The notes beneath the pieces were generated by a model. The model was given only the letters and a program-made list of their open reading frames with translations. It made no database searches and had not been told where the DNA came from. This document shows, one piece after another, positions 5,202 to 63,692 of a stretch of 63,718 bases of DNA (positions are counted from its first letter, which is position 1; each line of letters opens with the position of its first letter). This stretch comes from Desulfobacteraceae bacterium (lineage in GTDB: Bacteria > Desulfobacterota > Desulfobacteria > Desulfobacterales > JAABSP01). Location: positions 1 to 63,718 of the forward strand of contig JAABTD010000007.1 in the NCBI GenBank assembly GCA_011390065.1. The letters are read 5' to 3'. A program made the translations under genes and the position numbers.

Positions 5202-8200
5202 ATGATGAAAAACAGGATCGGCATCGCCCTGAAAATAATAGCCGCATCTTTTCTCCTCTGCGCCCTGGCGCGGCCGGCCCTTGCCCAGCAAAGCGGGCTT
5301 CCGGCTTCGGCGACTCCTTCGCAGGTTCAGCAGGCCATTCGATCCGGCCGGGTCAGCCAACAGCAGGTTCAGCAGGCCACGGAGGCAATGCGTAGGGGCG
5401 ACGTCAGCGCCGATCAACTCCAGCAGGCTCAGCAGCAAATGGGTGAAGGTTCCCTTACGCCCCAGGAAATTCAGAAGGGAAAAGAACTGATCGAAAACCA
5501 GGAAAGGGACGCGCGCGAAACCGAGCCTTCCGATGAAAGGCCGGACAGAGATGAACAGGATGAGGCCGGAAGCGGCAAAGACAAAACATCACAAAAACCG
5601 CGCCTGAGCATCTTCGGCCACAACCTTTTCTCAGAAACGCCGGACGCCTTCGGCCCCATCAAATCCATGCCGGTGTCCAACGATTACATCGTCGGGCCGG
5701 GAGACGAGATCCGAATCTATATGTGGGGACGTCTGGACGAATCCCACGCCCTGGAGGTCGATACCGAAGGCGTCATCAATCTTCCCAAGATCGGTCCTCT
5801 CACCGTTGCCGGCCTGACCTTCGGCGAACTCAAAGAACAGATCCGGCACAGAGCGGAAGCGATCACCGGCGTCAACGTCAACGTTTCCATGGGCAAACTC
5901 AAGACCCTTCAGGTATTCATCCTCGGGGAGGTGAAAAATCCGGGCATCCACACCGTCAGTTCTCTTTCGACGGTGACCAATGCGCTGCTGGCGGCCGGCG
6001 GCCCGACCGAAATGGGCTCCTTGCGGCGGGTGCAGCTGAAACGGCGAAAAGAAATCATCGCCGTCATCGACCTTTACGACCTTCTGCTGAAAGGGGATAT
6101 ATCGGCCGATACGACCCTGATGTCCGGCGACGTCATTTTCGTCCCCCAGGCCGGACCATTGGTGGCCATTTCCGGAACCGTAAAGCGTCCGGCGATTTAC
6201 GAACTTAAAGACATGGTCTCTCTGGAAAACGCCCTGGACATGGCCGGCGGCCTCGCGCCGAGCGCTTACAGCCAACGCATCCAGATTGAACGGTCGGTCG
6301 ACAACAAAGAGTTGATTGTCCTCGACATATCGGATGATCAGCTGAGGCGGGGACGAACCGTCGATTTGAAAGACGGCGACGTGGTGCGCATCTTTTCCAT
6401 CCTTCCCACTGCCGTCAATGCCGTGTATCTGTATGGCAACGTCGCACGGCCCGGCCGGTACGCTTACCATACGGGGTTGCGCCTCCGGGACATCCTCCGG
6501 GACGTGGAAAGCGTCCTCCCCGACACCTATTTCGACTATGCTTTGATCAAACGGTACCAGTTCGCGGAAGCCCAGGCCGAATTGATCCCTTTCAACCTGG
6601 GTCAACTGCTCTTTTCCGGCGACAATCGGCAGAATATCGCCCTGATGCCCGGAGACGAAATCCATGTGTTTAATCAGTCGCAATTCCAGGACCAGGCCTA
6701 CGCCGACGTCAAGGGCGAAATCCGGGAGCCGGATCGCTACGCCATCGACGATATGACGCTCCGGGACCTGATCTTGAAAGCAGGCGGGCTCACCCCCAGC
6801 GCTTACAAGCCGAGGGCGGAACTGATCCGGTACGACAAGGACCGCAACCAGCGCACCATCTATTTCGACGTATCGGCCGTCATGGCGGAAGATCCGGCCC
6901 AGAACATCAAGGTCCAGCACCAGGACGAAATCATCATCCATTCCGTCCTGGAAGACCAATGGAAAAAAACCGTCTCCATCATGGGCGAAGTCAACAACCC
7001 GGGAGAATACGCGCTGACGGAAGGCATGCATCTCAGGGAACTGATATTCAAGGCCGGAAGTTTTACCAGAGACGCTTACATGAAGATGGGCCATCTTCGC
7101 AAGACCGCCCCGGTGACCAAGGACATCACCATCCATTCCTTCAACGTCGCCAAGGCAATGGCGGGAGATCCCAACCATAATCTGTCGCTGTCGGACCTGG
7201 ACGAGATCATCGTCTACAGCGTATGGGATTATAAGGAAAAATACACCGTCGCCATCAACGGACTGGTGCGGAATCCCGGAGACTATCCCTATGCCGAGAA
7301 CATGATGGTCAACGACCTGATCCTGCTGGCCGGAAACGTCCGGGATGCGGCCTACATGGAAGAAGCGGAACTGGTCCGGTTTACCATCGAAGACGGCAAA
7401 ACCGTGGAAACCAACATCATCGCCTTCAACATCCGGCTGGCTCAGCAGGACCACCCTCAGCACAATCTCAAGCTCAAACCCATGGATGTGATCACCATCA
7501 AACAGATCCCCGACTGGTGGGAACGGACCCGGCTGGTCACGGTAACGGGCGAGGTCTTTTTTCCGGGAACCTATCAGGTCAAGAAAGACGAATTGCTCAG
7601 CAGCGTCATCGAGCGCGCCGGCGGGTTCACGGAACACGCTTATTTGAGAGGGGCCCAATTCACGCGGGAATCGGTGCAGGAAGTCCAGCAACGGCGCATG
7701 AACGAAATGCTCCAGGAACTGGAACTCGAAATCGCCAGAATGTCCTCGGAGGAAGTCAAAAAATCGCTTTCAACGGAGGACCTGGCGGCGCAGTCGGAAT
7801 TTATCAACGCCCAGAAGATGCTGATTCAAAAATTGCAGGAAAGCAGGGCCACAGGGCGGGTGATCGTTTCTCTGGGTCCCCTGTCGTCCTTCCGCGGCAG
7901 CAGCACGGATCTGGCGATGGAAGGCGGCGATGCCCTCCACATTCCCAAACAGATGAACACGGTCAACGTCATGGGCGCCGTCTACAATCCAACAGCGATC
8001 ATATTCGATGACAACAACCCCGAACTGGCCTATTATCTGGACCGTACCGGCGGTCCGACCGAAAATGCGGATGAAGATCTGATCTACGTCATCCGAAGCG
8101 ACGGAACCGTCGTAAGCAAGACGCGGGAACGCTCCTGGTGGAGACGCTTCGAGAACATTGCGCTTTATCCGGGCGACACGGTTCTGGTGCCGGAAAAAAT

Positions 8201-60728: not shown

Positions 60729-61496
60729 ATGGCCGCTCGAAAACCCCTGATTGCCGGAAACTGGAAGATGCACAAAACAGTCGCCGAAGCGGTGGACGCC
60801 ATCCGAAATCTGGCGGAACGCATCCCGGGTGAATCCAAGGTGGAGATCATGGTCGCGCCGCCTTTTACGGCGCTGGCCCCGGCGGCGGAAGCGCTGAAAC
60901 ATACCGCTATCGCCCTGGGGGCCCAAAACATCTTCTGGGAGGACGAAGGCCCCTATACCGGTGAAATCAGCGGCCCCATGCTGACATCGGCCGGGTGCAG
61001 CCATGTGATCATCGGCCACTCGGAACGCCGGCAGTATTTCGGAGAGACCGATGAAACGGTCAACAAGCGCCTGCGGGCCGCCTTCCGCCATGGGTTGATC
61101 CCTGTGTTCTGCGTCGGCGAGACCGAGGGGGAACGGGAAGCGGAAAAAACATTTTCAGTTCTTGACAAACAGGTCGCCAATGGGCTAAAAGACTTTGTTG
61201 CGGATGACCTGAAACAGCTGGTTCTGGCCTACGAGCCGGTATGGGCCATCGGTACCGGCAAGACAGCCACCAGCGAGCAGGCTCAGGAGGTCCATGCGTT
61301 TTTGCGATCCCTGATTGAAAAAAAGCTTGGGCGGGGCCTTGCCGAATCCCTCAGAATCCTGTATGGAGGCAGCGTAAAGCCGGGCAATGCAGCCGAACTG
61401 ATGGGGATGCCCGATCTGGACGGGGCGCTGGTGGGCGGCGCCAGCCTGGACGCCAAAACATTTTCCGAGATCGTTCTGTATGACCGGTCCGCTTAA
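60729..61496 (+). CDS. tpiA: Triosephosphate isomerase
   Basis: AGNWKM, GHSERR, AYEPVWAIGTG and LVGGASL motifs. Confidence 0.98.
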   Translation: MAARKPLIAGNWKMHKTVAEAVDAIRNLAERIPGESKVEIMVAPPFTALAPAAEALKHTAIALGAQNIFWEDEGPYTGEISGPMLTSAGCSHVIIGHSERRQYFGETDETVNKRLRAAFRHGLIPVFCVGETEGEREAEKTFSVLDKQVANGLKDFVADDLKQLVLAYEPVWAIGTGKTATSEQAQEVHAFLRSLIEKKLGRGLAESLRILYGGSVKPGNAAELMGMPDLDGALVGGASLDAKTFSEIVLYDRSA

Positions 61497-61534: not shown

Positions 61535-61882
61535 ATGACACTGATACTGATTGTTGTTCACATTATCGTCTGCATCGCTTTGATCATGATCGTCCTGCTG
61601 CAAACCGGCAAAGGGGCGGACATCGGCGCGGCCTTCGGCGGCGGTTCCAGCCAGACCCTTTTCGGCAGCACCGGCGCATCGACCTTTCTGAGCAAGGCAA
61701 CCACCTTTGCGGCAGTCCTCTTCATGATGACCTCCCTGGCGCTGGGCTACATTTCAGGACATAAAGGGGGAGGCTCCATCATGATGGAACAACCGCCAGT
61801 TCGTACAACCGAAGAAACCCCGGCCTCCGAAGATCAACCAGCCCCGATGACGGACACCACGGAGCAGGAGGCAACCGACTAA
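61535..61882 (+). CDS. secG: Preprotein translocase subunit SecG
   Basis: Two TMs; VLLQ.GKGA.IG.AFGGG.SQT.FG motif; follows tpiA. Confidence 0.96.
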   Translation: MTLILIVVHIIVCIALIMIVLLQTGKGADIGAAFGGGSSQTLFGSTGASTFLSKATTFAAVLFMMTSLALGYISGHKGGGSIMMEQPPVRTTEETPASEDQPAPMTDTTEQEATD

Positions 61883-61900
61883 ACATGCCATCAGACATAT

Positions 61901-61987
61901 GCCGAAGTGGTGGAACTTGGTAGACACGCTATCTTGAGGGGGTAGTGGGCCACGCCCGTGCCGGTTCAAGTCCGGCCTTCGGCACCA
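61901..61987 (+). tRNA. tRNA-Leu (anticodon GAG)
   Basis: GCCGAAG acceptor pairing with CTTCGGC, D-loop GGTAGAC, anticodon stem CTATC/GGTAG with loop TTGAGGG, long variable arm, GGTTCAAGTCC T-loop and encoded CCA. Confidence 0.97.
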
Positions 61988-62056: not shown

Positions 62057-62119
62057 GATTCAAGCCCTATGCCCCAAAAAAGAAAAGCCCGCATCGGATG
62101 ACGCAATCCGACAAGGGCG

Positions 62120-62148
62120 TTGACACACAGATCGCAAGCGCTTAAAAT
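62120..62148 (+). promoter_or_regulatory. Near-consensus sigma70 promoter with no downstream ORF on its strand
   Basis: TTGACA, 17 nt, TAAAAT. Confidence 0.75.
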
Positions 62149-62154
62149 ATTGCT

Positions 62155-62235
62155 TGTCTAATCGGTTGTGCTTTCCGGCCCTTTCGGAAAGCGCTTTCTA
62201 AGCCCGCTGGATGGTCAGATCCAGCGGGCTTTTTA
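62155..62235 (+). ncRNA. Putative ~80-nt two-hairpin small RNA
   Basis: Bounded by the promoter above and a 13-bp terminator stem with U tract; internal hairpin GCTTTCCG/CGGAAAGC; no ATG-initiated ORF inside. Confidence 0.55.
62200..62235. terminator. Intrinsic terminator shared by the putative sRNA and the convergent RHH gene
   Basis: AAGCCCGCTGGAT-GGTCAG-ATCCAGCGGGCTT-TTT. Confidence 0.85.
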
Positions 62236-62255
62236 TGTCAAAGAACGACCAGCCG

Positions 62256-62453
62256 CTAAGGCTCTGTGCTTTTGGTATCCTTCCCGGCCCTTTTTCTTTC
62301 GTGTCTCTCCACGCTCTCCGTTGCCCACTTCACAAACAGCGCCGTTACCGATGTATCCAAATCAAGGGCCATCTGCTTGACCCTCTTGTGGAGTCCTACA
62401 GGGAAGTTCAAATTCAGTCTGTGTGCGCCGTCTGGGGCTTTCTTCGATACCAT
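62256..62453 (-). CDS. Small ribbon-helix-helix DNA-binding protein (CopG/Arc/ParG-like)
   Basis: TAAGGAG Shine-Dalgarno before ATG; RLNLNF ribbon strand, PVGLHKRVKQMALDLD helix 1, TSVTALFVKWATESVE helix 2; own candidate promoter TTGACT-18-TAGACT. Confidence 0.75.
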   Translation of the reverse strand: MVSKKAPDGAHRLNLNFPVGLHKRVKQMALDLDTSVTALFVKWATESVERHERKRAGKDTKSTEP

Positions 62454-62537
62454 TCAATGTCTCCTTACGATCAAGTCTAAACCCTTTATCTCTGTATAGT
62501 CAAGCCTTTTTTCGCATTAAAGGCCCCCAAGGGCTTT

Positions 62538-63692
62538 TTACCGTTGCTCCACCTTCCCCGCCTTTCCGTCCTCCCCGCTCAGATTTAGCAGGTTGACCTC
62601 TAACTTGTCGCCGGTGGGGATGTAGTCGGCATACCATTCAATCGTAATACTAAGGTCATGGTGTCCGGCTTGTTCCATCACGTAAAGAGGTTTTGCCCCT
62701 GAACTAAAAAGCAAGCTGACATAGGTATGCCTGATGTCGTTGAAACGGATTTTCCGAAGGTCCGCCTTTTTTAAGCGCTTTTTGAACCTGTCGCGGGCGG
62801 TATTTTGGGACATGTATTTTCCGTCTTTATGGAAGATGACGGCGACGGGTCCCCCCAGGCCGCCTTCCAGCGCTTCCCGTTTGCGCCGAGTCAGCAGATC
62901 CCGAAGGACCGGTAAGAGGTCGTCGGAGATATCGACCCATCGGTTCTTTCCGTTCTTGGGCGGCCCTATTCCGTCTTTGCGCCGGCGGAAAGACTTGGAG
63001 ACCTCCAGCCGCTTTTTATGCCAGTCTATATCGGACCATTCCAGCGCCAGCAGTTCGCCAATCCGCAGGCCCGTTGAAAAGGCGGTCATATAGAAGGGGT
63101 ATTCATCCGGGAAATATTGACGGCAGGTCGAAAGGACCTGATAGACCTCCTTATGGTCGAAGGGGAACATTTTCGGCTTTTTGGACCGCTCCAGGTTCAA
63201 CCGCTTCAATATCCCGTTGCAGGGGTTGTCCTTGACCATCTCATCTTCGATTCCGTAGTTGAAAACGCCGCTGATAACATCCTTGACCACGCCGATATGA
63301 CTTTTTGAAAAGCCCCGGTTTTTGAGACCCATCAGCAGGTCCCTTACATGGCCCCTGGTGATCGCCGTCAACTCCAGATCTCCGACAACGGGGTTGATGT
63401 AGTCCCTCAGAAGCTGCCCGTATCGTTCATAGGTGGGGGGTTTGTCCTTGACCTTAATCAAATCTTCAAGCCAGATCGCCGAGTAAATCTTGAAGGGCTT
63501 TTCCGCCGGCTTGGGGTCGGCTTTCCGCCACAACCCTTCCGGGTCCCGTATCAACTCGGCTTCAAACAGCCGCTTTGCCTCTTCGGCCGCCTTCCGGTTG
63601 CCCACCTTCCGCTTGATCCGCCGTCCCTTGTGCTTGACATCGACATACCAGACCCCAGACCCCTTGTCCTTTTCCCAGATCGTAACGCCCAC
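62538..63692 (-). CDS. Phage-type tyrosine integrase
   Basis: N-terminal arm-binding domain (GVWYVDVKHKGRRIKRKVG), core-binding domain, TGLRIGELLAL, PKNG, NDIRH, GHHD and WY catalytic motifs. Confidence 0.93.
   Translation of the reverse strand: MGVTIWEKDKGSGVWYVDVKHKGRRIKRKVGNRKAAEEAKRLFEAELIRDPEGLWRKADPKPAEKPFKIYSAIWLEDLIKVKDKPPTYERYGQLLRDYINPVVGDLELTAITRGHVRDLLMGLKNRGFSKSHIGVVKDVISGVFNYGIEDEMVKDNPCNGILKRLNLERSKKPKMFPFDHKEVYQVLSTCRQYFPDEYPFYMTAFSTGLRIGELLALEWSDIDWHKKRLEVSKSFRRRKDGIGPPKNGKNRWVDISDDLLPVLRDLLTRRKREALEGGLGGPVAVIFHKDGKYMSQNTARDRFKKRLKKADLRKIRFNDIRHTYVSLLFSSGAKPLYVMEQAGHHDLSITIEWYADYIPTGDKLEVNLLNLSGEDGKAGKVEQR

Follow-up and report, generated by a model that had tools for sequence, protein, structure and literature searches.

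A probable small RNA gene conserved at the tRNA-side end of integrative elements in Desulfobacteraceae

Does the short stretch between a tRNA-Leu gene and the integrase end of an integrated element in a Desulfobacteraceae genome encode a functional small RNA (sRNA), and if so, on what might this RNA act? The window analysed here (63,718 nucleotides) is an entire contig, C413, of a draft genome (G000) of 5.04 Mb with an estimated completeness of 98.6%; it stops inside the element, the far end of which was assigned via a separate contig, C424. A first-pass annotation had described an orphan sRNA gene at the edge of an integrated element, in which a TTGACA-17-TAAAAT promoter and a 13-bp terminator enclose about 80 nt with a hairpin and without any ORF, and which converges on an RHH gene. 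A functional, element-encoded sRNA had been proposed, possibly as part of an RNA plus RHH cassette. The promoter, the two hairpins and the converging RHH gene are present, and the position at the edge of an element is borne out by the tRNA gene on one side and a tyrosine integrase on the other (Table 1). The whole region, from the tRNA with its att site through the sRNA and RHH genes to the integrase, spans ~1.8 kb.

Table 1. Features at the tRNA-side end of the integrated element (positions in the window).
Feature	Position	Strand	Basis and remarks
tpiA	60729-61496		
secG	61535-61882		
tRNA-Leu(GAG)	61901-61987	+	ARAGORN; Rfam tRNA, 46 bits; integration target
att core repeat	61971-61987		last 17 nt of tRNA-Leu(GAG), TCCGGCCTTCGGCACCA
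Spacer from tRNA to IR-A			~100 bp
IR-A, minus-strand intrinsic terminator	62076-62118	-	hairpin 62087-62118, minus-strand U-tract 62076-62086; adjoins the -35
sRNA promoter	62120-62148	+	-35 TTGACA 62120-62125, 17-nt spacer, -10 TAAAAT 62143-62148
Predicted sRNA, ~80 nt	62155-62236	+	start inferred ~7 nt past the -10
Hairpin 1	62168-62194	+	11-bp stem GTGCTTTCCGG/CCGGAAAGCGC, C/U loop
IR-B, intrinsic terminator of the sRNA	62200-62234	+	13-bp stem 62200-62231, then T5
Converging 65-aa RHH-like gene	62256-62453	-	ORF and profile match to RHH structures
Candidate RHH-gene promoter	62474-62503	-	TTGACT-18-TAGACT; consensus scan 9/12, weak evidence
Tyrosine integrase (int)	62538-63692	-	Pfam Phage_integrase 2e-24 and SAM-like N-terminal domains

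The predicted sRNA begins with a short variable 5' leader, which is followed by hairpin 1, the linker UUUCUAA and the terminator. Its promoter matches the sigma-70 consensus at 11 of 12 positions. Promoters as good as this occur three times in the 63.7-kb window and 115 times in the 5.04-Mb genome, and the anatomy of a single copy is suggestive rather than decisive, because such matches are rare yet not unique. The 86-nt RNA folds into two hairpins (hairpin 1 and IR-B) at -42.6 kcal/mol, with a z-score of -5.9 and none of 200 shuffled sequences folding as well.

The locus does not stand alone, contrary to its description as an orphan. BLAST and covariance model searches revealed four copies of the module in the genome itself (in the window and on contigs C460, C424 and C150, the latter three being 77-80% identical to the window copy) and at least ten further copies in related Desulfobacteraceae assemblies. 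A covariance model, R1, which was built from eight copies, finds 11 full copies with scores of 58-167 bits and four more (110-125 bits) in Logan/NCBI contigs that were reached via RHH homologues, two of these contigs carrying the same element; complete matches thus number 15. Full copies occur in the three other species of the genus and, outside it, in another genus of the same family (G003, 109 bits) and in another family of the same order (G208, 58 bits). A tRNA gene for Leu-GAG, Leu-CAG, Cys or Met precedes every complete copy at a distance of 70-110 bp, except that the C424 copy is preceded by the last 17 nt of tRNA-Leu(GAG) rather than by a whole tRNA. Exact-pattern scans of GTDB genomes, JGI metagenomes and IMG/VR, together with blastn against plasmids and phages, returned only Desulfobacteraceae MAGs, and the weak R1 matches within the order (<40 bits) lie more than 1.4 kb from the nearest tRNA and resemble ordinary terminators. 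The family is real but phylogenetically narrow.

Two of the weak R1 matches (G031:C6:15435-15582 and G163:C4:82470-82615) have a promoter-hairpin-terminator arrangement of their own (TTGACA...TAAAAT / TATAAG); neither adjoins a tRNA or an integrase, and they are probably sRNAs unrelated to the module. Terminator-only versions were observed directly 3' of tRNA-Leu(CAG) (G006:C144, ~1423-1465) and of tRNA-Met (G008:C27:24412-24515), one of them with a tandem duplication of GCCCGCTGGATGG within its 5' arm. They look like deletion derivatives that have kept just the plus-strand terminator.

Comparison of the copies shows where the module is constrained. In an alignment of 11 copies, mean column identity is 0.98 in the -35, the most conserved segment of the module, and 0.76 in the -10, as compared to 0.57 in the spacer between them, the length of which is held at 16-17 nt in 10 of the 11. 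The three helices have 93.6% of their cells paired and compensatory change at 13 pairs, values matched by none of 500 column shuffles, and pairing falls to 34-45% in a control with slid partners. IR-B accounts for eight of these pairs, with 97.6% of its cells paired, and the compensatory changes in hairpin 1 are CG<->UA and UA<->AU. The copies come from a handful of closely related MAGs, so that part of the conservation is shared ancestry and the shuffle statistics overstate independence. The wobble pairs additionally reveal the strand: on the plus strand, G-U pairs outnumber A-C pairs by 15 to 2 in hairpin 1 and by 18 to 1 in IR-B, which indicates that both were selected as plus-strand RNA, whereas IR-A, read on the same strand (5 G-U, 8 A-C), favours the minus strand. 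The gene has its own promoter and its own intrinsic terminator, both under selection, as would be expected of a cis-antisense type of RNA. Conserved hexamers over a diverged spacer, compensatory pairs and a strand-specific G-U bias argue strongly that the element carries an sRNA gene that is genuine and under selection, and in this respect the initial proposal very probably was correct.

Several other identities were considered for the region. Its description as free of ORFs is literally inaccurate, since a mechanical 70-aa GTG ORF (62168-62380) crosses it; however, this ORF runs through the terminator, and hairpin loops, which vary from 5 to 9 nt among copies, would shift its frame, so that a peptide-coding function was rejected. 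A REP-like repeat was rejected because IR-A, IR-B and hairpin 1, when searched as genome-wide repeats in G000, are confined to the four modules, a MITE because the context is constant across copies, and a 5'-leader because, with a single exception, the copies have convergent genes downstream. Against Rfam 15 at a permissive E-value, no family reached its threshold: the best non-tRNA match was RF02837 (anti-hemB) with 19.9 bits, as compared to a required 49.5, and the sub-threshold matches are generic two-hairpin alignments.

The att site lies in the tRNA and not in the sRNA gene. The 17-mer TCCGGCCTTCGGCACCA occurs exactly twice in the genome, at the end of the window's tRNA gene and at C424:22823-22839 (~5824-5840 of locus L006), and the second copy is directly upstream of the C424 module. 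Their sequence and placement mark the two 17-mers as the probable attL and attR of the window's element, behind which a second element, now decayed, follows in tandem; this suggests that C424 carries the far end of the window's element and that two tandem elements occupy one tRNA. Past the 17-mer, C424 contains a decayed module with an RHH remnant and a truncated XRE gene, followed by host genes (tsaE-like, NAD(P)HX epimerase). C424 and C150 have ~100 bp past the tRNA end in common, the former after a 3' fragment of tRNA-Leu(GAG), the latter after tRNA-Leu(CAG). Homology beyond the ends of different tRNA-Leu genes implies that the module is element DNA, i.e., the attP arm next to int, and not host DNA. 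An att site inside the sRNA terminator is not supported, since the 17-bp direct repeat corresponds to the 3' end of the tRNA and C424 and C150 are homologous from the tRNA end onward.

The first-pass annotation had also called for sequence and covariance searches near related integrases. These showed conservation within the genus and in a few relatives, whereas related integrases elsewhere in the order are not accompanied by the module. Integrase homologues of 30-52% identity were found in 33 of 301 genomes of the order, mostly adjoining a tRNA gene, and their int genes end ~85-100 bp from it. The sole feature detected in most of these gaps is a conserved plus-strand terminator hairpin, GGCCGTAATCC-N4-GGGTTACGGCC, and a hairpin of this type is retained ahead of IR-A in three of the module-bearing copies. 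An int-tRNA gap without the module in relatives, together with the old hairpin kept in three copies, identifies the sRNA module and the RHH gene as a clade-specific insertion between int and att. The GGCCGTAATCC-N4-GGGTTACGGCC hairpin and its variants were seen at Leu, Phe and Met tRNAs (L065-L088), with a T-run and ~10-15 nt past the tRNA 3' end; it may serve at once as a substitute terminator for the tRNA and as a site in attP to which the integrase binds.

Other elements of the family show the layout beyond the point at which the window ends. A sister element, represented by L094 and L096, has, in order, an HTH gene (present in the L094 sequence), a serine resolvase, int, RHH and the module. 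In the element at tRNA-Leu(CAG) on C150 (1-2750; L007), a frameshift splits the integrase into two ORFs (1566-2132 and 2083-2742), and the other genes comprise an HTH gene of excisionase type, a second and short ORF for a tyrosine recombinase, and a transposase fragment; this element is decaying, yet its sRNA module and RHH gene are intact.

Which gene does the sRNA face? In the window it is the RHH gene, whose stop codon is 21 nt from the T-run of the sRNA and whose 65-aa product is charged. The family profile matches structures of the CopG family (PDB 9kkd, E 1e-4) and of ParG (1p94, E 3e-4), which places the product among RHH proteins; single sequences remain below threshold in Pfam, except that the C460 paralogue reaches RHH_1 at 1e-8, and only three close homologues of the window protein were found among 5.8 billion proteins. 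The suggestion of an RNA plus RHH cassette is only partly upheld. The converging gene is an intact RHH gene in 7 of 14 complete copies (window, C460, C150, G006_C245, G007_C71, G008_C310 and L094) and a remnant in two more, but elsewhere its place is taken by a 95-aa ORF that follows RHH (L095-L097), by a small recombinase (G003) or by an MqsA-like gene (G006_C114). The G208 copy has kept the sRNA with no converging gene and has a weak IR-A U-tract. As the RHH gene is replaced in some copies, the constant partner of the sRNA is the 3' end of the integrase-side operon with the tRNA/att junction, and not RHH. The 95-aa ORF (MSKSFASKMVKMGWERAEA...; L095:396-683, L096:2326-2613) overlaps the RHH stop and lies between RHH and the sRNA; it has no Pfam match and only a weak PHROG match, and may be the lost partner of the window's stand-alone RHH gene.

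Whichever gene converges, its stop codon is 5-50 nt from the T-run in the 11 copies in which a converging gene was placed and measured. IR-B is not predicted to terminate transcription from that direction, its minus-strand flank being UUAGAAAG with no U-tract. A minus-strand terminator is predicted at IR-A in 10 of 11 copies, including the window, and in copies with a converging gene it is the only one predicted between this gene and the tRNA. Given a stop codon near the T-run and no minus-strand terminator at IR-B, the operon mRNA is predicted to read in antisense through the sRNA gene with its promoter as far as IR-A, where it would end.

From this geometry, we infer two transcripts, their pairing and an effect of pairing. 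The module forms a conserved 'end-cap' of a small family of tRNA-targeting integrative elements, in the order IR-A, near-consensus sigma-70 promoter, ~80-nt sRNA and plus-strand terminator IR-B. The integrase-side operon, int-RHH in the window and int-RHH-ORF95 in the sister element, would be transcribed toward the tRNA; its mRNA would read antisense through the whole sRNA gene and promoter to IR-A, and the sRNA would be fully complementary to the resulting ~170-nt 3' UTR. The two RNAs might pair from a loop-loop contact into a duplex that is cut by RNase III, and the cut would remove the protective 3' hairpin and lower the expression of RHH and int. The converging transcription units might also interfere mutually at the sRNA promoter, and the back-to-back terminators could keep read-through from the tRNA gene out of the integrase operon and vice versa. 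That the sRNA acts as a cis-antisense RNA on the 3' end of the integrase/RHH transcript is the reading we favour, with a confidence that is about evenly balanced. Two observations speak against it: the G208 copy retains its sRNA although it has no gene to converge on and only a weak IR-A U-tract, and the -10 region is impaired in two copies, by a deletion in G007_C3 and as TAAAAC in L094. An RNase III gene is present in G000 (on C400), while tblastn and the Pfam model PF17209, which detects Hfq in control genomes, found no Hfq in this 98.6%-complete genome.

The convergence could instead be incidental, if the sRNA acted in trans and paired via its loop, leader or linker with purine-rich ribosome-binding sites in mRNAs of the host or of the element. 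The build of the RNA, in which a U-rich linker joins a hairpin to a terminator with U-tail, resembles that of classic trans-acting sRNAs, the hairpin-1 loop is 82% pyrimidine over 11 copies despite its varying sequence (hand count from the alignment), which would fit anti-Shine-Dalgarno action, and the G208 copy shows that the sRNA can be kept in the absence of a converging gene. However, the leader, loop and linker are the least conserved parts of the alignment (identity of 0.52-0.73, as compared to 0.81-0.91 in the stems) and no conserved single-stranded seed was found in the 11 copies; neither such a seed nor Hfq, which together would mark an Hfq-dependent trans-sRNA, is in evidence. Complementarity is at chance level as well: within ~1.5 kb downstream of the four own-genome copies, the longest match is 10 nt and is equalled in 22 of 200 shuffles, and the longest matches genome-wide (blastn-short; 16 nt) all fall inside the terminator stem. 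A kissing-loop target in the RHH gene, the 10-nt repeat CCGGCCCTTT (62175-84 and 62279-88), was rejected as being at this same chance level and missing from the other copies. Weakly conserved single-stranded parts, no significant trans match and RNase III without Hfq fit a cis-antisense RNA and weigh against a seed-based role in trans, which we consider unlikely. Less likely still is a passive insulator, in which two back-to-back terminators part the tRNA gene from the integrase operon and the transcript is a functionless by-product. The outward direction of IR-A and IR-B would suit this role, as would the plus-strand terminator hairpin that most related integrases across the order have between tRNA and int, and the terminator-only partial copies after tRNA-Met and tRNA-Leu(CAG); but an insulator would need neither a promoter with a near-invariant -35 nor a hairpin 1 with compensatory and strand-specific changes.

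The location of the module between int and the core, in the P' arm of attP, raises the possibility of a cofactor of recombination, mobilisation or replication, be it as an RNA or by hairpins that serve as protein-binding sites of the attP arm. There is a precedent in SGI1, in which an essential sRNA lies between mpsA, a gene of tyrosine-recombinase type, and oriT (PMC9299015), and within the genus the stem sequences of IR-A and IR-B are conserved, both with GGAT...ATCC. Yet the terminator stem of G208 has a wholly different sequence with its pairing retained, which points to structure rather than to a binding site, and the G-U bias points to selection at the RNA level; moreover, homologous integrases work without the module, and it has no sequence likeness to SGI1. 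We regard this role as improbable. Least credible is an anti-defence RNA (a CRISPR-repeat mimic, Racr) or an RNA antitoxin of type I or III, although anti-defence genes are often accompanied by small regulators, several type I toxin-antitoxin pairs overlap convergently at their 3' ends, and a weak Rfam alignment to CRISPR-DR17 was obtained (19.3 bits at E = 1, with a threshold of 42). The CRISPR-repeat mimic that had been mentioned initially is not borne out: the repeat of the sole array found in the draft assembly, CTCACAACCCCTCATGGGGATAAATAAC, is unlike hairpin 1 or IR-B. This array (C184:14109-14941) comprises at least 13 repeats with ~36-nt spacers, two consecutive ones being identical, and reaches the contig end. 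An RNA antitoxin can be set aside on similar grounds, since no toxin ORF was found on the overlapped strand: the module contains no complete minus-strand ORF of at least 30 aa, and of the two that extend into it one overlaps RHH out of frame and the other runs into the tRNA gene; the converging genes (RHH, ORF95, recombinase, MqsA-like) are not small hydrophobic toxins, and tandem repeats of the type III kind are absent. A P4 CI-type immunity RNA, also raised at first, does not fit a gene with its own promoter and terminator, and repeated complementary sites of the seqA/seqC type were not found within ~1.5 kb downstream of the four copies.

If the cis-antisense reading is correct, a convergent sRNA nested between an integrase operon and its terminator would add a second way, acting through RNA in trans, of controlling integrase from the 3' end, a mode of control which to our knowledge is known mainly from lambda sib. 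A further step would be a 'trans-sib' switch, in which a strong and constitutively expressed sRNA in the attP arm sets integrase and RHH levels from the mRNA 3' end, or an RNA cofactor of the recombinase akin to sgm-sRNA; either way, an entire clade of tRNA-integrating elements would have its stability and excision governed by RNA, a prospect we think improbable at present. Being 78-80% identical, the four paralogous sRNAs of this genome might also cross-regulate elements that lie in tandem or compete, which would amount to RNA-based incompatibility between integrative elements. We know of almost no sRNA biology in uncultured sulfate-reducing bacteria, and the absence of Hfq in G000 bears on how any sRNA of this lineage works. 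The covariance model is new and its matches have no Rfam counterpart, the compact tRNA-att/sRNA/RHH/int region offers a clear test system, and the module marks the integrase-proximal end of an element family, which is of use in finding island boundaries in fragmented metagenome-assembled genomes. Given the narrow phylogenetic range and the familiar type of mechanism, we rate the general impact as moderate.

Among known systems, one of the closest is OOP of phage lambda, a constitutive RNA of ~77 nt with its own promoter and terminator that is convergent to cII and complementary to the 3' end of cII mRNA, the decay of which it triggers in an RNase III-dependent manner. Both are short RNAs of mobile elements, each with its own promoter and terminator, that converge on a regulator gene. 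However, OOP overlaps the coding end of cII, whereas the overlap of the module is predicted to be confined to the 3' UTR; its sRNA gene is nested between the converging gene and the terminator of that gene, at the att-proximal end of the element, and the two have no sequence likeness. The sar RNA of phage P22 is a small antisense RNA that is convergent toward the RHH repressor gene arc and masks the ribosome-binding site of ant. Here, too, a putative antisense RNA faces an RHH gene in a mobile element and the sRNA promoter would be crossed by opposing transcription, but beyond the overlap the module has only a terminator and the att site and no downstream gene. In pMV158, a small RHH repressor, CopG, and a countertranscribed RNA, RNAII, jointly act on one mobile-element operon; RNAII is directed at the start of repB translation, downstream of copG, whereas nothing lies downstream in the module, for which RHH is dispensable. 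The pairs bsrG/SR4 and txpA/RatA of prophage-like elements in B. subtilis are convergent, with a complementary 3' overlap of ~100 nt that leads to degradation by RNase III. They resemble the module in convergent transcription, predicted 3' overlap and location in an integrated element, but the gene that the module sRNA would overlap is not a small hydrophobic toxin, which places it outside the type I toxin-antitoxin systems.

The proposed effect on the integrase recalls lambda sib, a cis-acting, RNase III-sensitive hairpin beyond att that senses the integrated versus the free state. In both cases integrase expression would be set from the mRNA 3' end via an RNase III-sensitive duplex beside att; the duplex of the module, however, would form in trans via a dedicated sRNA, and the module is linked to int in both states. 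The sgm-sRNA of SGI1, which arises by processing of the 3' end of a longer mRNA and on which conjugative mobilisation depends, is also carried by an integrative mobilisable element, between a gene of the tyrosine-recombinase family and its DNA site (PMC9299015), but no likeness to the module in sequence or structure was found. By analogy, the module would work most like OOP/cII, sar/arc-ant and the 3'-overlapping type I pairs, with an effect on the integrase resembling that of sib. It is not a member of OOP, sar, type I or sib by sequence or defining features, but a new sRNA family of a known kind of regulator, distinguished by its nesting between a converging operon and the terminator of this operon and by its fixed place at the att-proximal end of tRNA-integrating elements.
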